Assembly (NCBI GenBank): GCA_050012755.1
Contig: JBEKGO010000011.1
Span: 1-55,907, forward strand
Length of the DNA stretch: 55,907 nt
Reading direction: 5' to 3'
DNA from: Candidatus Bathyarchaeia archaeon
Lineage (GTDB): Archaea > Thermoproteota > Bathyarchaeia > Bathyarchaeales > Bathycorpusculaceae
Shown: piece after piece, positions 1 to 37,175 of the stretch
How the letters are laid out: every line of letters starts with the position of its first letter
Position numbering within the stretch: position 1 is the first letter of the stretch
Made by a program: the position numbers and the translations under genes
Notes under the pieces: generated by a model
Databases searched by the model: none
What the model saw: only the letters and a program-made list of their open reading frames with translations
What the model was told of the DNA's origin: nothing

Positions 1-211
<211 letters not shown>

Positions 212-18256: not shown

Positions 18257-19186
18257 TTACAATATTTCTCCAACAACATTTATGGGTTTACAAATTAACG
18301 ATTTTGCTTCTTCAAGTTTCTCTTTATCTATTGTGGCAAGAATGACTGTGGCAGGGCCAGCCGACTTGTTCAAATCTAACCCTTTGACCTCACTCAGCTT
18401 TACTTGTCTCCCAACGCTGAAAGCCATCATTCTGGCTTCATCCGCAATGCCAAAAGTGCCTACAGCGGCAATATCATGTACGTATCTTTTTTGTGAAAGC
18501 TGAATTACATTTTTTAGGTCAGCAATTTCTCCTTTCTTCTCAGCGAAAATAACTTCATCGCCAACTTTAGGTTTGCCAATTGCAATTATTAGATCTCCGG
18601 GGCACGTTTTTCCAAGTCTTAACTCGTTTTCATTGGCAAACCCAACGACGGTTAATCCAGCACCAGTCTGTACCGTTTCAAAGTTGTCTTCTGTATTATC
18701 CATGATTACTTGATTTGGGTCAAGACCGATACTTCTGGCTTCACGTTTAATGCCCTCTATTATCTGGTTGCCTGTTGGTTCTTTCTCTACGCCTAACGTG
18801 ACTGACAAGAGAAGAGGAAAAGCGCCTGTCGAAGTAACATCCATCAAGGCAACTCGGGCCAGAAACTTTCCAAGTACCTGGCCGTCAACTTTTACTTTGT
18901 CCATTATTTTTGGACCGACAGCTCCTGATGATGTCGAACCTATTACCAACGCGTGGCCTGTTGGAACTTTGAGGATTGAGACATCGCCTCTTCTTGTGTA
19001 CGTTATTTGGGCAGGTTTTACTTGGAAAACAATGGGGCGTAGCATAGTGCCCACGTTATCTACAAGGTGTAAATAGATAGTCAATGCTTGGCGCATTACT
19101 TCTGATCGAGTGAGGTTATGCTTTTTTGCTAACTTGTCGATGTCTGAAGCTATTTTGTCGGGCAAGCGGACGTTTATAATCTCCAT
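18257..19186 (-). CDS. Ribbon-helix-helix regulator fused to an alpha-ribazole kinase (CblS)-like PurM-fold domain
   Basis: INVRLPDKIASDIDKLAKKHNLTRSEVMRQAL (RHH), then GAVGPK..D, ARVALMD, EKEPTG..II.GI, TEDNF.TVQTG, KSAGPAT (CblS-like). Confidence 0.75.
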   Translation of the reverse strand: MEIINVRLPDKIASDIDKLAKKHNLTRSEVMRQALTIYLHLVDNVGTMLRPIVFQVKPAQITYTRRGDVSILKVPTGHALVIGSTSSGAVGPKIMDKVKVDGQVLGKFLARVALMDVTSTGAFPLLLSVTLGVEKEPTGNQIIEGIKREARSIGLDPNQVIMDNTEDNFETVQTGAGLTVVGFANENELRLGKTCPGDLIIAIGKPKVGDEVIFAEKKGEIADLKNVIQLSQKRYVHDIAAVGTFGIADEARMMAFSVGRQVKLSEVKGLDLNKSAGPATVILATIDKEKLEEAKSLICKPINVVGEIL

Positions 19187-19202
19187 AGTTTACCAACCGT
19201 AT

Positions 19203-19215
19203 TACAACCGTTGTA
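19203..19215. promoter_or_regulatory. Palindromic operator candidate for the RHH regulator
   Basis: TACAAC-C-GTTGTA, 16 nt upstream of the RHH start codon, within CAACCGT direct repeats. Confidence 0.5.
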
Positions 19216-19369
19216 CGTGAAATCTCTTATCCTTTGCCCTAAACCAAACATGTTATGCGGGAATATACTAGCATAATTAGCGCTGAAAAGAGGCTATCTT
19301 TTGGTATTTTCAAGGGGTTTAGCGCAAGTGTTATATGTACTTATACTGTAAAAAGTGTGAGGAATAGCC

Positions 19370-20332
19370 ACGAATAAAAAAATCCTAGCATTAACCCTCG
19401 TATTATTATTAACCACCATCTATATTTCATCGGTGTCAATTTCACCAACTAAAGCCCAGTCAACAACCACTGGGTGGATTACAAGTTATGATATTTACGA
19501 TTACAATTCCAATCAGCATCTTGCCAGTTACAGTGCAGCAACGGGCAATCAATCATTTGCACCAATAGTGCCTGGGGCTGAAATTAAAGTAATATTCGTC
19601 ATAAACGTTTTCACTGCTGGGTCTGGCGACCTGAAGCTTTCAACTAGTTTACAAAACCCGCCTCAAGGTCAATACTGGCAACTTAACAGCGGAAGCACCT
19701 ATTCGTTGGGTAGCGATTTTAATCCAGATTCGCAGCAAGCATCATTCAATTGGGTTGTAGGAACCTTCACAATGACTGTTGCAGGTATCGTTCCATCTAG
19801 CTCCACCCAACAAACTGGAGCCCCTGTGAACTTAGTAACCCTTTATGGTCCAACCAGCGGCTTACCTCTTGATCAAATTACCGTATCATCAGTCAGCGCA
19901 GCGATGACACAATTCAATATACTATACAGCCAGAAGGCAGCACATCTAAAATCACTTGAATCAGGCGGAGTTGCACAGGGATATGTCGAGCTTTTCCAAA
20001 ATGTTCTTAATGAGTCGACAGTCGAAGCTAATTCAGGCCAAGTTACCAGCGCCATAGCCCTGTTAAACCAACTGAACATCTCAGATGAACCAGCCTCCTC
20101 AACAACGCAAGCACTCTTCATACCAATAGTCGGTGCCTTAGCTGCCGTAGCAGTTATATTTGCAGTTTTGTTCCTCAGAGTACGCGGAAAAGTTGGATAC
20201 TTCCAGCTTGTCGTTGAAGACCAAATCAAGGACTTAGAAGGTTTAACGATGAGAATTTCAAAAATCGACAGAGCAAGTTCATCAAACTTAGAATCAGTCA
20301 AAGACAGACTCAAAAGACTAGTTGGGATGTGA
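19370..20332 (+). CDS. Exported single-pass membrane protein with cytoplasmic coiled-coil tail (probable ACG start)
   Basis: Frame open upstream of GTG 19433, giving signal peptide (T)NKKILALTLVLLLTTIYISSVSISPTKA; TM ALFIPIVGALAAVAVIFAVLFL; heptad tail; in-frame stop at 19358-19360. Confidence 0.8.
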   Translation, partial: TNKKILALTLVLLLTTIYISSVSISPTKAQSTTTGWITSYDIYDYNSNQHLASYSAATGNQSFAPIVPGAEIKVIFVINVFTAGSGDLKLSTSLQNPPQGQYWQLNSGSTYSLGSDFNPDSQQASFNWVVGTFTMTVAGIVPSSSTQQTGAPVNLVTLYGPTSGLPLDQITVSSVSAAMTQFNILYSQKAAHLKSLESGGVAQGYVELFQNVLNESTVEANSGQVTSAIALLNQLNISDEPASSTTQALFIPIVGALAAVAVIFAVLFLRVRGKVGYFQLVVEDQIKDLEGLTMRISKIDRASSSNLESVKDRLKRLVGM

Positions 20333-20338
20333 TAGCAC

Positions 20339-23032
20339 ACGAAAATCTACCAGAACAGCGTTCAACTAATAGGACTTGGTTCAGCAGGAACTAACATAGT
20401 CGAAGCTTTCCTAACGAACAAAAAAACAATGGAGCTGCTTGGGAACGATATTACTCGTCTCTCCCTTTTAGCAATCGACATCGCTGACCCAGAAATCAGA
20501 AGCCTTCTAGAAGCAGACGAAAGAATTACCAAATCAATGATAAGAGCCGGTATTCCCCGAGAACGCTTGCGGGTAGTTGCTCAGTCAGTGAAGTTTCCAA
20601 CTGCCGAGGCAATGTTCGATTTCATCAACCAGAAATACAATGAGTACTTAATTGGCGAAGGCGCTAAACTTGAAGATTTCAAACCATGGCTTCAATCAAC
20701 AATGGCTATTCCACCAATGGCTGGCGGCGCAGGCAGAAGAAGAGCATTAGCCAAAGCCATTTACGCCCTAAACTATTATCAACTAGGAATAATCAAAAAC
20801 TGCATAAACGTTTTCAAAGAACAAGCACTCTCATCAATTATTACTCCAACCATTGTTCTGATCTACGGTTTAGGGGGAGGAACAGGAAGCGGCATCTTCT
20901 TTGACTTTGTCAGGCACCTGCGAAAAGTCATGGGATCAGGCATTCCCATAATAGCGTTCGTCATCACTCCCTGCGGCGGAGACGACCCTCCAGCAAAAGG
21001 GTGCTCATCATTTACCGCGATAAACGAGCTCTCTTTGATGCTAAACAAAGATTACAACCAGTATGTCATAAATGAATTCGGAGAATTGTACCGAAACCCC
21101 CTGAACGCACTTGTTTACTTGCCATTACTTCCAGCGTTCTCAAAGGTAGGCAACATAGTTTCAGCCCGCAAAGAAATGGATGACATGGTCGTAGAAATGC
21201 TCTATGTTCTGATGGATTTTGACCTAGCAGATTTAATGGGCGGAATCGGCACCGAAGTTGGACTCACCAATAACTCCTCACATACTCTAGGTATGATGAA
21301 AGTCATTTATCCAGTCGACGACTACATTGCAGCATACAAAGTCAACTTTGAAAGCCTAGAACTATTACAAGAACACCGAAGAGAAAAACTTGAGTTACTA
21401 GACGCAATGGACTGTTTAGTCAAAAACAACTTTGACACAGCAAAAGAATTCTTTAAGAGTTATCTGATAAGGACAGGCACTTATAATGATGAGCAGTTTG
21501 AAGAAAAACTCAAGGCATTAATAACAAGCAATCCACGAATGGAAGATGACTTAGCCTTACATGTAAAGGGCATCGAGATACAAGTCAGAAATTGGATGCG
21601 AGAATTAACTCGGTTCCTTTCTACAATCAAATTCATGGGGAAACCGGGACCAATTGAAGAAGCTATAGTTGATCTTACACTCAAAAAAGCAGGCACCAAA
21701 AAAATTGACAGCCTTGAAGCTCTACTAGGCAACCTAACAAAGACCTATTTAGAATTCTCAGAGCGGAAAGCAGACATTACCGAGCGATTGACACAATTAA
21801 TTCCAAGCTCACAAGTATTCACAGTACGGCAAAAAAGAATCCTAGATGATTTCGTAAACATCGCAGAGATTGCTGAGAAATCCCTTAACACTCTGAGGTT
21901 CTATGACGAAACCAGATACTTAACCGACGCACTGATCAGATTCTATGAGGTAATGCCAGAATGCACTTGCGAACAGAACGACTTAAAAGACATACAATCT
22001 GAACTCGCAACGATTTACCTCTTGGTTCAATTGATGCTTAGATCACCTCAGGACGAATCAAAAATGGCTGAGGAACACCTTGCTTACGTAAACGGCATCG
22101 TGCTTAGGCGCCAGGATAAACGGGGCGATGTAGACAATGAAGTCGTAAGGATACAAGAATCAAGGAAACGAAAAGAATTTGATAAATCCAAAATGGAAAG
22201 GCAGCTCCGTAAAACTTTCGGTTCAAAGAAATACGCTAGAGAACAACTATTGAGTTTAGATAGAGACTTAAAGAGAATGGAAACTGAAGAAGCTATGGCT
22301 CTTGAGAACCTAAGCAAAGCTGATGAGTCAATCCAATTATACGTGAATTTGGCCCAGAGGATAGAATTAATATCTGAATACCGTAAGCGTCTAAACAAAA
22401 TTGTTGATATGCAACATGATTACGAGGTAAGACTTGCTAAAATCGTCGAGCCGAAGAAGTACTTTGAAAAATCAGCCGAACTTACAGAACTTGAGCAAAG
22501 AAAGATCTTATTCAAGATACTAACTGAGCAAGAAGAAACGCTAACAAACGATGTAATATTCAAAGATATACTAGACATGGATCACTTCAAAGACTACATG
22601 AAAAGCGTCATCAGAGCATTCAAAACGCCAAGCGTTATGGGGTTCAAACCAATCTACAAAACTGACTACATCTGGGTCACAATCCAGTCCCCTCCAAACA
22701 TGTGGACGGAAGATATGTCTCAAGAAGTTTACACTGCCCTAGCAGGATACGTCACAAGCGAAGTGTCAAGAACAATCACTGTTCGAGTAACCGAATCACG
22801 AGATCCATGGACAACTCGCGTACTAGTAGTCGGTGGCAGAGGGAAAGCGTCAGACATGGAAGCATTCGATGAAATGTCGCTGCTCTACAGCAAATCAAGC
22901 GATTTCGAAAGACACCTCTCAAGATCATACCTGCTTGAACATGGCGTTTCAGCTACACAAATAATTAGAGATATCAACGGAAACGGCAACGGCGCCGAAA
23001 CTGCAAACAACGATAAAAACAATAAAAAGTAA
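20339..23032 (+). CDS. Tubulin/FtsZ-superfamily GTPase (Tubulin_2/FtsZl-like) with long coiled-coil insertion (probable ACG start)
   Basis: T1 IGLGSAGTNIV (upstream of ATG 20429), LAID, AGGAGRRRAL, signature GGGTGSG at 20873-20893, T7-like DFDLADL; ~430-aa heptad-rich segment; beta-rich C-terminal part. Confidence 0.88.
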   Translation, partial: TKIYQNSVQLIGLGSAGTNIVEAFLTNKKTMELLGNDITRLSLLAIDIADPEIRSLLEADERITKSMIRAGIPRERLRVVAQSVKFPTAEAMFDFINQKYNEYLIGEGAKLEDFKPWLQSTMAIPPMAGGAGRRRALAKAIYALNYYQLGIIKNCINVFKEQALSSIITPTIVLIYGLGGGTGSGIFFDFVRHLRKVMGSGIPIIAFVITPCGGDDPPAKGCSSFTAINELSLMLNKDYNQYVINEFGELYRNPLNALVYLPLLPAFSKVGNIVSARKEMDDMVVEMLYVLMDFDLADLMGGIGTEVGLTNNSSHTLGMMKVIYPVDDYIAAYKVNFESLELLQEHRREKLELLDAMDCLVKNNFDTAKEFFKSYLIRTGTYNDEQFEEKLKALITSNPRMEDDLALHVKGIEIQVRNWMRELTRFLSTIKFMGKPGPIEEAIVDLTLKKAGTKKIDSLEALLGNLTKTYLEFSERKADITERLTQLIPSSQVFTVRQKRILDDFVNIAEIAEKSLNTLRFYDETRYLTDALIRFYEVMPECTCEQNDLKDIQSELATIYLLVQLMLRSPQDESKMAEEHLAYVNGIVLRRQDKRGDVDNEVVRIQESRKRKEFDKSKMERQLRKTFGSKKYAREQLLSLDRDLKRMETEEAMALENLSKADESIQLYVNLAQRIELISEYRKRLNKIVDMQHDYEVRLAKIVEPKKYFEKSAELTELEQRKILFKILTEQEETLTNDVIFKDILDMDHFKDYMKSVIRAFKTPSVMGFKPIYKTDYIWVTIQSPPNMWTEDMSQEVYTALAGYVTSEVSRTITVRVTESRDPWTTRVLVVGGRGKASDMEAFDEMSLLYSKSSDFERHLSRSYLLEHGVSATQIIRDINGNGNGAETANNDKNNKK

Positions 23033-23056
23033 GGAGAGGAGCTTTAACTCCTTTTT
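23031..23056. terminator. Hairpin between the convergent tubulin-like genes
   Basis: AGGAG-ctttaa-CTCCT followed by a T-tract. Confidence 0.45.
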
Positions 23057-24798
23057 TATTCCAATAAACTTTTTGTGATTAACTGCCAGTCTTCTTCAGA
23101 TATTAAGCCTTTTTTAACGGTTTTATTCTTCATTTTTTCAACCTTTCTTTCTAATGCGGCGAAGCGTGTCGTTGTCTCGAAACCGCCAACAAATAATGCG
23201 ATGTCTATGCGATCATTAGATTCTTCTACATACATGGGGTCAGCTATGTAAATTGATTCAAGGTCTGCTTTGTTCTCGAACCAATTGGCGATTGCTAGCT
23301 CAATTTTTCCTCTAGTAAGAATATCTTTTAGGTTAAACGGCATTCGGATAAGAACATAGAGTACAGTGGATGTTGATAGGTCAAAAGTGAAAAGAGGTCT
23401 GAGCAACGTGGTGTTCAGCATATTTTCTAATGATCCGTAAATTTTCAAGCTTAAACCAGAAGCCAAAAGAACAGTGAACACTTTAGAACCGAAAGATTTT
23501 GACATCTCGATTAGTTCAGCCACAAAGGTTTCTTTCACCAACATTAAATCAAGGAGGTAATTGGTTACGCTGTTTCCATTAATGGCGTAACCGTTTCTGT
23601 CAACACCTATGTAGCTTTCAAGATTATCCCTGTCAACAAGCAAAAGAGGATCCTGTTTCGAAGCCAAAATACCCAGTGACGCAAAAGTGTTAAATTGACC
23701 ATCGAGAGGCTGGGCTTTCGAGGGCAAAAGTGGCAAAGCTATTGAGTTTATTTTCCATTCTTTGAATTGAGCATTTAAACTTGGCAATAAAGCGCTGCCG
23801 ATGCCGTTCCAAGTGGATGAAACAATTATGACTCCTTGGAGTTTCTCTATAGGCTTGCTCTTTATCTTTGCAAAGAAACTTTCGTTGCCGGCACCATTTG
23901 GGAGAACGTCATACCAGAAATGAGTATCAATATCCTCATCTAAACAGACAATGTTGTTATTGTCCAGCCGACCTTGGCTCCATTTGATTACATCTTTCGT
24001 AGATTTTTCCACGAAAACTGGCAAGATCCCTTGCTCTCTTTTTTTCTCAAATGAGCCTTTCAAAACAATGTTTATAGGGTATTCCCCGATACACACAACG
24101 GCTTTTGTGGGCAAAAGGCGTTTCAAACTGTCAGTGTATTTTTCTATGTTCTCAACACTGTCAGTTAAAGGTACTTTATCTTCAGTTTCAACGAGCACCC
24201 CCTCTTTCATACTTTCAATTGTTGAAGTCACTTGTTCAGGGTTCGGTCGGGTCAATGGATCAGCCAGTTTATCTTGGTCTTTCACCCACTTCAATTCAAC
24301 AAGTGCTTCCTTCTGCTTAGTATCTGTCGGAGCAACAATGTTATCAATTTGAGATGTTTCTTGCGTTTCTTTTTCGGTTGACTGAGGCTTGCCATCACTT
24401 GCTATCAAAGTTGGTTGAGTTTCAGTAGGCGTTGGCTGCGTCTCATTGTCAGGCCCAATCTTAACTTCATTTTCTTTGCCAGAAGTTTGTTCTTGAGTAT
24501 TAACTTGCTCAATGGGTATCTCGGCTTGTTGTTGATTGGCTATGGTATCTGATGCTTCATTGTGGGTTTCCGCTTGCGACAACTTTGTTTTGTCTTCAAC
24601 TGGTGGCGCTTCACTGTTTTCAACTGGCAAAATGTTGTTTTCAATTCCAGTAGATTCTATTTTTTCATCGTTAGAAATGGGCTCTCCTACATTGTTGGTT
24701 TGATTTGATTCGGACAGTTTCTTTTCGTTTTCTCGTTCTTTTAAGTAGTCATTTTTACTGTACCATAGTCGCTGTTTTCTTTTAGGCAAAGTTATCAC
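23056..24798 (-). CDS. Degenerate FtsZ/CetZ-like protein (pseudo-GTPase) with ~220-aa acidic disordered N-terminus
   Basis: VVCIGEYPINIV (T1-like), IVSSTWNGIGSALLP (in place of GGGTGSG), LPLLP..QFNTFASL, LLLVDRDNL, LLRPLFTFDLSTST.LYVLIRMP, IALFVGGF, in the order of the CetZ/FtsZ elements. Confidence 0.72.
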   Translation of the reverse strand: MITLPKRKQRLWYSKNDYLKERENEKKLSESNQTNNVGEPISNDEKIESTGIENNILPVENSEAPPVEDKTKLSQAETHNEASDTIANQQQAEIPIEQVNTQEQTSGKENEVKIGPDNETQPTPTETQPTLIASDGKPQSTEKETQETSQIDNIVAPTDTKQKEALVELKWVKDQDKLADPLTRPNPEQVTSTIESMKEGVLVETEDKVPLTDSVENIEKYTDSLKRLLPTKAVVCIGEYPINIVLKGSFEKKREQGILPVFVEKSTKDVIKWSQGRLDNNNIVCLDEDIDTHFWYDVLPNGAGNESFFAKIKSKPIEKLQGVIIVSSTWNGIGSALLPSLNAQFKEWKINSIALPLLPSKAQPLDGQFNTFASLGILASKQDPLLLVDRDNLESYIGVDRNGYAINGNSVTNYLLDLMLVKETFVAELIEMSKSFGSKVFTVLLASGLSLKIYGSLENMLNTTLLRPLFTFDLSTSTVLYVLIRMPFNLKDILTRGKIELAIANWFENKADLESIYIADPMYVEESNDRIDIALFVGGFETTTRFAALERKVEKMKNKTVKKGLISEEDWQLITKSLLE

Positions 24799-30663: not shown

Positions 30664-30741
30664 TGGCGGGTCCGACGGGAATTGAACCCGCGACCCCCGG
30701 ATTAAAAGTCCGGTGCTCTAGCCTGACTGAGCTACGGACCC
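30664..30741 (-). tRNA. tRNA-Lys(UUU), intronless, CCA encoded
   Basis: Reverse complement GGGTCCG-TAGCTCAG...CCGGA-CTTTTAA-TCCGG...GGGTTCAATTCCC..CGGACCC-G-CCA forms a cloverleaf. Confidence 0.97.
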
Positions 30742-36453: not shown

Positions 36454-36519
36454 TCCTACTTGTTAGTGTTGACGGTAGGAAAACTAAAATATAACCTAAA
36501 AACATTATCCCATCAGATA

Positions 36520-36617
36520 AGGTCTCGGGGAGCTGGGAGATTGACCTGGCTGAGAGGACGGCTATTTGCTGTCGACCCTTAGAACCTGAACCAGGTAATA
36601 CTGGCGGAGGGAAAAAA
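36520..36617 (+). promoter_or_regulatory. TPP riboswitch (THI element)
   Basis: CGGGGAGC..GCTGAGAG..GACCC..GAACCTGA-ACCAGGTAATACTGG-CGGAGGGA with P3, P3a (gacggc/gctgtc), P4 and P5 pairings; directly before thiT. Confidence 0.92.
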
Positions 36618-37175
36618 ATGAAAATACAAACTGAACTACCTAAGAGTAATAATATTTTTTCAACCAAGATACTTGCAGAAATAATAATATTTGTCGCAAT
36701 GGCAGGGGCATTAGCTCTTATAAGCCACTCATTCTTTGGTCTTCCACAAGGCGGCTCCATTAATCTTGGGATGGTGCCTATCTTTTGGCTTGCGTTGCGG
36801 AGAGGTCCAAAAATCGGGATATTTGCAGGCGCCGTGCTTGGCGTAGTTGACCTTGCGATTGAGCCCTTCGTTGTTAACCCTGCCCAATTTGTCCTTGATT
36901 ATCCATTGGCCTTTGCTTGCCTTGGACTTGCTGGATTCTTCAGAAAACCTGCAGTTGTCGGTCCAATTGTCGGCGTAGTGGTTGGCGGAACAGGCCGTTT
37001 CCTATCTCACTTTGTTTCAGGAGTCATCTATTTTCCTCAGTATGCACCCGCAGGCATGAGCCCGGTTGTTTACTCGGCAATATATAACGCGACTTACATG
37101 GTGCCAAGCACAATAATCTGTGCAATCGCAATTTTCCTGCTTCAAAGAAGCAAGACACTAAACATTTACCTCTAA
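36618..37175 (+). CDS. thiT: Energy-coupled thiamine transporter S component
   Basis: LPQGGSI.LGMVPI..ALRRG, QFVLDYPLAF..LGLAG, RFLSHFVSGVIYF, YSAIYNATY. Confidence 0.92.
   Translation: MKIQTELPKSNNIFSTKILAEIIIFVAMAGALALISHSFFGLPQGGSINLGMVPIFWLALRRGPKIGIFAGAVLGVVDLAIEPFVVNPAQFVLDYPLAFACLGLAGFFRKPAVVGPIVGVVVGGTGRFLSHFVSGVIYFPQYAPAGMSPVVYSAIYNATYMVPSTIICAIAIFLLQRSKTLNIYL

Follow-up and report, generated by a model that had tools for sequence, protein, structure and literature searches.

The window, by which we mean the whole stretch of 55,907 nucleotides that was analyzed, contains two consecutive genes, and all of the features described here lie on the + strand. The upstream gene (gene 1, positions 19370 to 20332) encodes a protein of 320 residues that matched no Pfam or NCBIfam family and whose translation we read as a signal peptide, an extracellular part, a C-terminal transmembrane helix and a charged tail. 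The downstream gene (gene 2, 20339 to 23032) encodes an 897-residue protein of the tubulin/FtsZ superfamily (Pfam Tubulin_2), the C-terminal part of which is long and helical. Within the window the two genes lie in one frame.

In the frame of gene 1, a TGA stop codon (19358 to 19360) is followed by the Shine-Dalgarno-like (SD-like) sequence GAGGA (19359 to 19363), a 6-nucleotide spacer, an ACG codon (19370 to 19372) and then AAT AAA AAA ATC. By our reading the SD of gene 1 is a run of only four bases, GAGG; GAGG- or GGAGG-like runs occupy the equivalent place in relatives. The first canonical start codon in the frame is GTG (19433 to 19435), 21 codons 3' of the ACG and the start used by public gene calls (299 residues). 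The signal peptide falls between the two codons, and a start at the GTG loses its N-terminal and hydrophobic parts. About 39 nucleotides 5' of the gene 1 start lies a predicted promoter-like element, GCGCAAGTGTTATATG (19322 to 19337), which includes a TATA-like TTATAT (19331 to 19336) and is kept in most orthologous loci. From general knowledge of archaeal promoters, we take this element to be a putative promoter giving a leader of about 10 nucleotides.

The start region of gene 2 has a similar layout. The SD-like sequence GGATGTGA (20325 to 20332) overlaps the TGA stop codon of gene 1 and the codons just before it, and it is followed by an in-frame TAG (20333 to 20335), CAC, an ACG codon (20339 to 20341) and AAA ATC TAC. 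The 16S rRNA 3' end within the window is GGATCACCTCC, so that GGATGTGA is, as had been proposed, one mismatch away from the SD complement. The first canonical start codon is ATG (20429 to 20431), 30 codons 3' of the ACG and the start used in the JGI and ENA calls (867 residues), whereas the call from the NCBI source begins at ATA (20369 to 20371; 887 residues). The ATA start cuts strand beta1, and the ATG start loses beta1, the T1 loop and helix H1. The first-pass annotation had placed each ACG 6 nucleotides after an SD and just past an in-frame stop codon, and every coordinate was as described; a listing of open reading frames likewise agreed that no ATG, GTG or TTG precedes GTG 19433 in gene 1 or ATG 20429 in gene 2.

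Residues 10 to 211 of the gene 2 protein matched positions 2 to 206 of the profile PF13809 (E = 2.6e-11; 43.8 bits, cut-off 27). In 30 orthologues the GGGTGSG loop was invariant, as were G12-N19, G177 and G179-G185, in the glycine-rich nucleotide loops T1 and T4. A structure model with a mean pLDDT of 63 placed beta1 at residues 7 to 13 and H1 at residues 14 to 26. The best Foldseek matches of that model were TubZ, CetZ and FtsZ (E about 5e-6), with TM scores of only 0.30 to 0.37 at this pLDDT, and a search of the PDB by sequence gave no match.

The ACG of gene 2 is deeply conserved. It was found at 154 of 160 related loci, in the same column at 145 and one codon upstream at 9, and the other 6 loci have ATG. 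These counts overstate independence, since the loci are related by descent and some genome records may recur among the metagenome contigs; after reduction to 136 distinct sequences, ACG is present in 131 and ATG in five. A single locus (L015) has TTG as the start, and in none of the 136 sequences was ACA, ACC or ACT the lone candidate. Nearly all of the 160 loci also retain GGGATGTGA/GGGATGTAA, and an in-frame stop codon lies one to three codons 5' of the ACG. Meanwhile, codons 2 to 10 vary synonymously among the 136 distinct sequences (for example, GTA 51, GTT 50, GTG 25 and GTC 9), and Q5, N6, V8 and G12-E22 do not vary at all among 30 orthologues. Judged by this pattern of substitution, codons 2 to 30 of gene 2 are under protein-level constraint.

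These observations bear on whether gene 2 starts at ATA 20369, ATC 20345 or ATG 20429, with the codons upstream left untranslated. Public calls do pick ATA 20369 or ATG 20429, and ATA, ATC and ATT are all start codons in NCBI table 11. Nevertheless, we regard such a start as very improbable, given that protein sequence is conserved across codons 2 to 10 while synonymous change is free. Moreover, codon 3 is not fixed as ATC (ATC 76, ATA 49, ATT 5, TTC 5 and GCT 1 of 136), and ATA 20369 and ATG 20429 have only coding sequence upstream, with no SD; starts at these codons would truncate beta1 or remove the T1 loop and H1 entirely, along with the Pfam profile from position 2 onward. The alternatives raised in the first-pass annotation, namely starts at ATA 19364 or ATC 20345 and a 1-nucleotide indel after GTG 20329, found no support either: the ATC varies to ATA, ATT or TTC, and the distance from stop codon to ACG is 3 to 7 nucleotides. 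That distance also speaks against a fusion of the two genes by read-through of stop codons, as might be imagined from their shared frame in the window, where they are parted by TGA TAG CAC. We find a fusion scarcely credible, as two consecutive stop codons intervene and distances of 3, 4, 5, 6 and 7 nucleotides (in 10, 12, 28, 84 and 2 of the 136 distinct sequences, respectively) mean that the frame is lost in 42 of them.

The history of the gene 1 ACG is different. Among the compared loci this ACG is present in the source genome alone, and the column holds TTG, ATG or CTG in relatives. The closest relative (L106) has ATG there and differs at just one further position within the 110 nucleotides compared, and another genome (G012, locus L007) has CTG. 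On this alignment, the gene 1 ACG is a recent ATG-to-ACG change limited to the source lineage. Thus, the two ACG codons have no common history, and the context ATAGC(A)CACGAA that they share is, on the same comparison, a matter of chance: the motif is present in the window as had been reported, but it has no support as a signal, the spacer varying freely among orthologues. Alignment of orthologues, a check that the first-pass annotation had suggested, therefore upheld the conservation of the ACG in gene 2 but neither that of the ACG in gene 1 nor that of the ATAGC motif.

Could the gene 1 ACG instead reflect a damaging mutation of recent origin, or a mistake in the assembly or consensus? The protein would then be scarce, or would be translated from GTG 19433 and lack its signal peptide, and the codon would be no evidence for a functional ACG. 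The restriction of this ACG to the source genome, the near identity of L106 and the four-base SD are in keeping with this idea. However, contigs of a DNA run (X2, which may be the source sample) covering 18800 to 20236 and 20212 to 20475 showed 0 differences; the first of these spans gene 1's ACG. In addition, the remainder of gene 1 is intact, ACG serves as a start elsewhere in the source genome and the clade, and G012 has CTG in the same column. We consider the damaging-mutation or error explanation unlikely. Rather, the gene 1 ACG may be tolerated because ACG can initiate, at the probable cost of reduced output. We note separately that the change might be a mildly harmful mutation.

Taken with the substitution of the gene 2 ACG by ATG or TTG only and with the TTG, ATG and CTG in the gene 1 column, the alignments support the original proposal that ACG is the real start codon of both genes.

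We also carried out a genome-wide comparison, using our own definitions of open reading frames and SD sequences. We took in-frame ACG codons that precede the first canonical start by 10 codons or more, and counted as an SD any run of at least five bases at the spacing typical of the genome. Upstream of confident starts in the source genome, matches to SD 5-mers lie at aligned offsets between -17 and -12, most often at -14; the gene 2 ACG lies at the mode, and that of gene 1, at about -12, lies within the range, in agreement with the claim that both have the SD spacing of canonical genes. A correctly spaced SD was found upstream of 9 of 81 in-frame ACG codons, as compared with 0 of 156 out-of-frame ACG codons (Fisher p = 4.7e-5) and 127 of 7534 in-frame codons other than ACG (p = 1.2e-5); multiplied by 61 codons, these p values become about 0.003 and 0.0008. 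The synonymous codons ACA, ACC and ACT, when pooled, had an SD upstream in 5 of 398 cases. Among SD-backed codons of the source genome ACG and CTG were enriched and AAG and AGG were not, and CTG and ATA are probably also start codons at a lower level in the source lineage. For GCG (2/69), TCG (2/63) and CCG (1/45), an SD was no commoner than upstream of out-of-frame codons. The enrichment of ACG was not replicated in another species (G003), of which the first 1.2 Mb were scanned (3/48 versus 2/109, p = 0.17); there CTG was enriched instead (7/51 versus 3/117). Finally, at two individual genes the position occupied by GTG or ATG in G003 carries GCG or TCG, and decoding with one mismatch leaves these cases unexplained.

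The use of ACG extends to other genes of the clade. In further genes with ACG (those for HflX, a DUF362 protein and a zinc ribbon protein), the Pfam domain begins 5' of the first canonical start. Across the order, ACG is present at 31 of the 36 hflX loci, including 11 of 14 loci from other families of the order. A canonical start was found at none of the 36, and where ACG is replaced, it is by ATT or ATA and never by ATG. In the DUF362 start column (20 loci), ACG occurs 8 times, ATG 5 times and TTG 3 times. As judged by sequence comparison, then, ACG is a working start codon in this uncultured Bathyarchaeia lineage from peat. From their flanks, the remaining ACG genes of the source genome appear, by our reading, to be first in their transcripts.

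In plant organelles, ACG start codons are edited from C to U to give AUG, and the first-pass annotation had offered the same explanation here as its more speculative option, with the ribosome meeting a normal start codon in the mRNA. As in organelles, there is a genomic ACG at the start position, in this case of many genes, and a T in some relatives. An RNA run (X21) also yielded one contig, from a relative, with ATG at the position of the gene 2 ACG, in its unaligned continuation, and on the sense strand of the RNA-run contigs C-to-T differences outnumbered G-to-A differences by 76 to 31, whereas the ratio in DNA of relatives was 1.07 to 1.49 (p = 0.02, from counts that are not independent). 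The two individual genes with GCG or TCG in place of the GTG or ATG of G003 could be taken in the same sense. However, the RNA contigs are only 90 to 95% alike to the window and hence derive from relatives, and their cover leaves out position 19370 of gene 1. As ATG is also present in DNA at the gene 2 position in 6 of the 160 relatives, the X21 contig may simply stem from one of that kind. Furthermore, GCG, TCG and CCG show no enrichment behind SD sequences, and the exchange of ACG for ATT or ATA in hflX fits a weak codon and not a hidden AUG. Unlike in organelles, we found neither a recognition motif common to orthologues around the gene 2 ACG nor an editing-type protein, a search with PF00383 turning up only one deaminase-fold open reading frame of 203 residues. 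Were editing neutral, one would not expect 96% of relatives to have kept the C while synonymous divergence reached saturation. Editing at these ACG codons is thus without support and, as a general explanation, is improbable. A shade less probable still is its bolder form, in which a hitherto undescribed archaeal C-to-U activity edits ACG to AUG and, if regulated, could switch the tubulin-like operon, hflX and other genes. If it were true, editing would be the first case of mRNA start-codon editing outside organelles.

We therefore favor, as quite probable, an account in which both ACG codons are real starts decoded as near-cognates by the CAU initiator tRNA, gene 2 is translationally coupled to gene 1, the weak codon is selected and the gene 1 ACG is recent. 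This account draws on the position and conservation of the codons and on what was found around them: ACG is one base off AUG, canonical starts take its place in columns of orthologues, the SD is correctly spaced, coding constraint extends upstream of the canonical starts, and SD-backed ACG is enriched across the genome. The initiator Met-tRNA would read ACG despite a single mismatch, at the middle base, presumably with methionine as the first residue and at low efficiency, and strong, well-spaced SD pairing would help. The initiator tRNA is ordinary (anticodon CAU, A1:U72), the sole tRNA with a CGU anticodon looks like an elongator, and aIF1 is encoded.

Termination-reinitiation coupling is described as requiring overlaps or very short distances between genes (PMC10666635), and genes 1 and 2 lie at such a distance, 3 to 7 nucleotides in 136 distinct sequences. 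Since the gene 2 ACG is that close to the upstream stop codon and its SD overlaps the stop, ribosomes that end translation of gene 1 probably restart at this ACG. In being co-directed, in this spacing and in having an SD that falls within the terminal part of the upstream gene, the two genes resemble the pairs treated in PMC6728339 and PMC10666635; they differ in that the restart codon would be ACG and the coupling is predicted. As for the codon itself, a single C-to-T change would give ATG, yet ACG is kept in 96% of gene 2 relatives and hflX has no canonical start, which argues that weakness itself is selected. A weak codon of this kind would hold expression low or in a fixed ratio to that of the upstream gene.

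Near-cognate initiation at ACG and CUG is known in eukaryotes and their viruses, as for VP2 of AAV and C' of Sendai virus. The archaeal starts are similar in being one base off AUG, in presumably using initiator Met-tRNA and in an expected output below that of AUG, and the preference for ACG and CTG over AAG and AGG resembles the eukaryotic near-cognate ranking. They differ in that the SD, probably together with coupling to the upstream stop codon, places the ribosome without scanning, in that ACG is the sole start of ordinary cellular genes rather than an extra upstream start, and in that it is conserved over a genus or an order. In bacteria, infC has a conserved weak start, AUU. There, as we propose here, selection keeps a non-standard codon at a given gene and the SD leads to it. 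In E. coli, low-level initiation from ACG has been measured: GFP translated from ACG yielded peptides with N-terminal Met, and one culture also yielded Thr (bioRxiv 10.1101/063800). Our case differs from the bacterial ones in being from an archaeon with aIF1 and not IF3, and any autoregulation here would be conjecture. Factors of the eIF1, eIF1A and eIF2 types are common to archaea and eukaryotes (PMC4705826).

The nearest parallel in gene content is the Asgard tubulin AtubA, for which PMC13394414 describes a rare ATT start with a plausible ribosome-binding site that was missed by the gene caller, so that the deposited protein lacks the first beta strand. A tubulin-family gene, a missed non-standard start and the loss of the first beta strand from annotation are common to both cases; the differences are that the AtubA codon is ATT and not ACG, that AtubA is a bona fide tubulin and not a Tubulin_2 protein, and that it concerns a single genome.

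Our literature searches found no archaeal ACG start. Two reviews of archaeal translation give AUG, GUG and UUG as the only start codons (PMC4705826 and PMC7531240), the latter with 0 occurrences of ACG. ACG is absent from the start codons of NCBI table 11.

With ACG a real and conserved start in this group, as the related genomes show, standard gene finders shorten the proteins of genes 1 and 2 and systematically shorten or misplace those of other ACG genes, with distortion of function prediction and structure work; here one protein loses its signal peptide, and the other, a cytoskeletal protein, loses its nucleotide-binding T1 loop. ACG is probably a selected start codon in abundant archaea of sediment and peat, kept in a tubulin-like gene across 160 related loci and in hflX across an order. 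A weak codon retained one transition away from ATG points to archaeal control of expression through the choice of start codon. Finally, as archaea share start-selection factors with eukaryotes, natural use of ACG and CUG in this lineage bears on the origin of the eukaryotic near-cognate rules.

Two consecutive genes that lie in the same reading frame within the window, one encoding a protein of 320 amino acids (gene 1) and the other a tubulin-like protein of 897 amino acids (gene 2), appear to be translated from ACG, and the coordinates that the first-pass annotation assigned to the two sites were all borne out by the sequence. On the forward strand, the frame of gene 1 follows an in-frame TGA (19358-19360), and a Shine-Dalgarno (SD)-like GAGGA (19359-19363) precedes ACG 19370 by six bases. 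Translation from this ACG yields (T/M)NKKILALTLVLLLTTIYISSVSISPTKAQS, which, judged by eye, is a putative signal peptide. The SD-like sequence of gene 2, GGATGTGA (20325-20332, forward strand), includes the last codons and the TGA stop of gene 1; on the same strand the frame of gene 2 runs through TAG (20333-20335), CAC and ACG (20339) into KIYQNSVQLIGLGSAGTN. The archaeal 16S rRNA 3' end at the start of the window (1-211, cut off by the window start) terminates in GGATCACCTCC, so that GGATGTGA departs from the SD complement by one mismatch. According to the ORF listing, the earliest canonical starts (ATG, GTG or TTG) in the two frames are GTG 19433 for gene 1 and ATG 20429 for gene 2. The window also contains a lysine tRNA with anticodon TTT (30667-30741, reverse strand; ARAGORN), a TPP riboswitch (36516-36629, forward strand) and a 580-amino-acid ORF (23056-24798, reverse strand) that is convergent with gene 2, their 3' ends being 23 nt apart, and for which no family was found in Pfam or NCBIfam. 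The stretch, from a genome of 65 contigs (2.41 Mb, 41.6% G+C), was found in sequencing runs labelled as peat and wetland metagenomes.

To keep the start codon from biasing the search, we used the peptide downstream of the ACG of gene 2 as the query and compared 80 metagenome contigs and 80 contigs of species-representative genomes, the closest of which were from Candidatus Bathyarchaeota/Bathyarchaeia metagenome-assembled genomes, including the Bathy-6 group and Candidatus Bathycorpusculum. The start column held ACG in 74 of the 80 metagenome loci and 71 of the 80 genome loci, and ATG in four and two, respectively; the remaining two metagenome and seven genome loci had ACG one codon upstream. 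Thus, the conservation of ACG that the first-pass annotation had proposed to look for among orthologues was found for gene 2 at 154 of 160 loci (ATG at 6 of 160), and it persisted when the loci were collapsed to 136 distinct 66-nt sequences (ACG 131, ATG 5). A separate set of 14 genome loci, which probably overlaps the 80 genomes, gave ACG at 11, ACG one codon upstream at two and TTG at one (L015, which is interrupted by an internal stop and located at the end of its contig). Neighboring codons vary freely at synonymous sites: among the distinct sequences, codon 8 was GTA in 51, GTT in 50, GTG in 25 and GTC in 9, and codon 7 was AGC in 82 and AGT in 51. The start ACG of gene 2 shows none of the drift among ACN that would be expected of an ordinary threonine codon. 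ATC 20345, which had been offered as an alternative start, is not conserved as such, for codon 3 was ATC in 76 of the 136 sequences, ATA in 49, ATT in 5, TTC in 5 and GCT in 1.

The distance from the stop of gene 1 to the start of gene 2 was 3 nt in 10 distinct sequences, 4 nt in 12, 5 nt in 28, 6 nt in 84 and 7 nt in 2. This variable spacing excludes a read-through fusion of the two genes, and the frame that they share in the window is thus incidental. Meanwhile, GGGATGTGA (or ..TAA) was retained nearly everywhere among the relatives of gene 2, including the wobble base of the glycine codon, which would fit a function as an SD. The ATAGC context common to the two genes, in which a signal had been suspected, did not survive the comparison: it is not conserved in gene 2 orthologues, and since the spacer sequence varies we attribute the likeness to chance.

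The product of gene 2 likewise argues for a start at ACG. Residues 10-211, counted from ACG, matched positions 2-206 of the Pfam profile Tubulin_2 (E = 2.6e-11, exceeding the cut-off), and across 30 orthologues Q5, N6, V8, G12-E22 and the GGGTGSG loop were invariant. By these similarities gene 2 is assigned to the tubulin/FtsZ superfamily, with a conserved N-terminus that lies ahead of every canonical start. In an AlphaFold2 model, whose pLDDT averages 63 but reaches 82-89 at residues 11-30, strand beta1 spans residues 7-13 and helix H1 residues 14-26; the best fold matches in the PDB were TubZ, CetZ and FtsZ, with low TM scores of 0.30-0.37. A sequence search of the PDB with the protein found no relative, and an NCBIfam profile search gave nothing useful. 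ATG 20429 corresponds to residue 31, and a start there would remove H1 and the T1 loop along with beta1. In public gene calls the ACG is overlooked for both genes: gene 2 is called from ATG 20429 (867 amino acids) in JGI and ENA and from ATA 20369, within beta1, in the NCBI-source call (887 amino acids), a Logan member of its cluster has 888 amino acids, and gene 1 is called from GTG 19433 (299 amino acids) by NCBI and JGI. Within gene 2, a contig of depth 62 from the DNA run X2 skips 79 bases at 20502-20582; its source is probably a relative or another organism.

Whereas the ACG of gene 2 is conserved, that of gene 1 is not. Across 14 loci its column held TTG at six loci, TTG one codon upstream at two, ATG at two and CTG at one, with two ambiguous. 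The closest species representative (L106; 98% identity over a 133-amino-acid query, 92.8% in DNA) has ATG exactly at the position of the ACG and differs from the window at only one other site in the 110 nt compared, and three further loci (L108-L110) have TTG at the start. The ACG of gene 1 is therefore a recent T-to-C change in this lineage and not of long standing. One DNA contig from X2, which may be the source sample, matched window positions 18800-20236 with zero differences. About 39 nt upstream of the start lies a conserved GCGCAAGTGTTATATG, which, given the usual layout of archaeal promoters, we take to be a putative TATA element that would leave a leader of about 10 nt. The CTG belongs to the orthologue in a further related genome (G012, locus L007), where two other loci (L008 and L025) carry TTG, projected one codon upstream in the alignment; this CTG is a candidate for a second near-cognate start in the gene 1 family.

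A genome scan for SD-spaced ACG codons, which the first-pass annotation had suggested in combination with the ATAGC motif, was carried out on 1984 stop-to-stop frames, each 120 codons or longer and none overlapping another. Confident starts (747 ATG, 379 TTG and 172 GTG) served for calibration and placed SD 5-mers at offsets of -17 to -12, with a mode of -14. Of the 7615 in-frame codons situated 10 or more codons ahead of the first canonical start, 136 had an SD run of 5 or longer at the right spacing, and the top codon was ACG (9 of 81), as compared with 0 of 156 for out-of-frame ACG and 5 of 398 for ACA, ACC and ACT together (Fisher p = 4.7e-5 versus out-of-frame ACG and 1.2e-5 versus other codons). 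Relaxing the SD run to 4 or longer gave 20 of 81 in frame and 17 of 156 out of frame, which suggests about ten ACG-start genes in the genome by this measure. Several candidates have a Pfam domain that starts upstream of the first canonical start: HflX (domain 14-100, canonical start 51 codons downstream of ACG), a DUF362 protein (38-233, 69 codons) and a zinc ribbon protein (3-25, 14 codons). An ABC ATPase, an Lrp-type regulator and a NuoL-like subunit are plausible further cases; TrpRS, HisH and a methyltransferase are ambiguous.

For individual genes the case is strong. One of them is hflX (G000:C8:9698, L247/L255, in the window's genome, and 35 relatives across the order, L256-L284 and L316-L321). 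ACG was present at 27 of 30 loci, and four of six additional genomes from other families also had it, or 31 of 36 in all, including 11 of 14 outside the genus. The other loci had ATT, ATA, ACC (with ATA just upstream) or ACA (with ATT just upstream), one being misaligned; a canonical start occupied the start column at 0 of 36 loci, and a GGAGG-type SD was always there. In hflX, then, it seems to be the weak start itself that is conserved. The DUF362 start column, by comparison, held ACG at 8 of 20 loci, ATG at 5 and TTG at 3, the other four being misaligned or ambiguous. The genome-wide ACG signal is not uniform among species, for when the SD test was repeated on a second species, G003, over the first 1.2 Mb of its 2.35 Mb, it gave 3/48 versus 2/109 for ACG (p = 0.17) and 7/51 versus 3/117 for CTG (p = 0.009). 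In a census of alignments between the window's genome (G000) and G003, 76 of 623 pairs were flagged because the alignment reached upstream past the first canonical start; most of them are upstream-gene overlaps or close alternative starts, so that the census serves only as a source of single cases. These cases include ACG for ATG and CTG for TTG or GTG, as well as ATA for ATG or ATA. At five sites in the window's genome (contig:position C36:8383, reverse; C13:26847, C34:2835 and C25:8633, forward; C35:15171, reverse) the start is likely to be CTG or ATA: CTG is matched by TTG or GTG in G003, and ATA is either kept in both genomes behind a 7-base SD or matched by ATG. One of the five is the gene for ribosomal protein S11, with a CTG candidate and 42 codons lacking a canonical start.

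Could ACG instead be converted to AUG by C-to-U editing of the mRNA, as had been proposed? Contigs from three RNA runs (X21, X23 and X24) come from relatives and are 90-95% alike to the window; they leave 19370-19372 uncovered, and several cover 20339-20341. One has ATG, in its continuation, at the position of the gene 2 ACG, but we do not count this as evidence of editing because DNA relatives with ATG also exist (6 of 160). Against window positions 18800-21800 these contigs showed, on the sense strand, 76 C>T and 31 G>A differences (counts that are not independent), together with 42 T>C and 46 A>G; the closest DNA relatives likewise show a C>T excess (C>T/G>A = 1.07-1.49), and that in the RNA contigs is weak and unexplained. 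Two single genes have a codon at the start column that would be compatible with editing: a LivF-like ABC ATPase gene (G000:C30, index 30973, reverse strand), with GCG where G003 has GTG, and a gene at G000:C14:27038 (forward strand), with TCG where G003 has ATG, each behind a GGAGG run and with 12 and 14 codons, respectively, lacking a canonical start. GCG and TCG are two mismatches from AUG, and one-mismatch decoding accounts for neither case; both remain unexplained. Genome-wide, however, GCG, TCG and CCG were not enriched behind SDs, the alternates to ACG in hflX are weak codons and not ATG, the orthologues have no common motif around ACG, and a PF00383 search of the genome found one small ORF only. 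We thus found no support for editing.

The simplest reading is near-cognate decoding, in which Met-tRNAi would read ACG on a ribosome placed by the strong SD. The initiator tRNA of the genome is ordinary (A1:U72, three G-C pairs in the anticodon stem, anticodon CAU), and no special initiator with anticodon CGU was found among the genome's tRNAs, the sole CGU tRNA resembling an elongator, which makes an initiator dedicated to ACG unlikely. The genome encodes aIF1 (G000:C22:54970-55188). In the case of gene 2, termination-reinitiation after the gene 1 stop may contribute; such coupling, as described in a passage of PMC10666635, requires overlaps or very short distances. An E. coli reporter started by ACG is described, in part of a preprint, as carrying Met at its N-terminus (bioRxiv 10.1101/063800).

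Finally, we note that our literature search did not find ACG starts in archaea, a report in supplements or subscription journals being possible; passages of two reviews name AUG, GUG and UUG only (PMC4705826, PMC7531240), and a section of a 2026 paper describes a rare ATT start that restores the first strand of an Asgard tubulin (PMC13394414). Near-cognate initiation is known, and what we rate as new here is its use in archaeal genes whose natural start codons are conserved. That the C is kept in 96% of the relatives of gene 2, together with the lack of a canonical start at hflX, suggests that at these two genes the weak ACG codon may itself be under selection.
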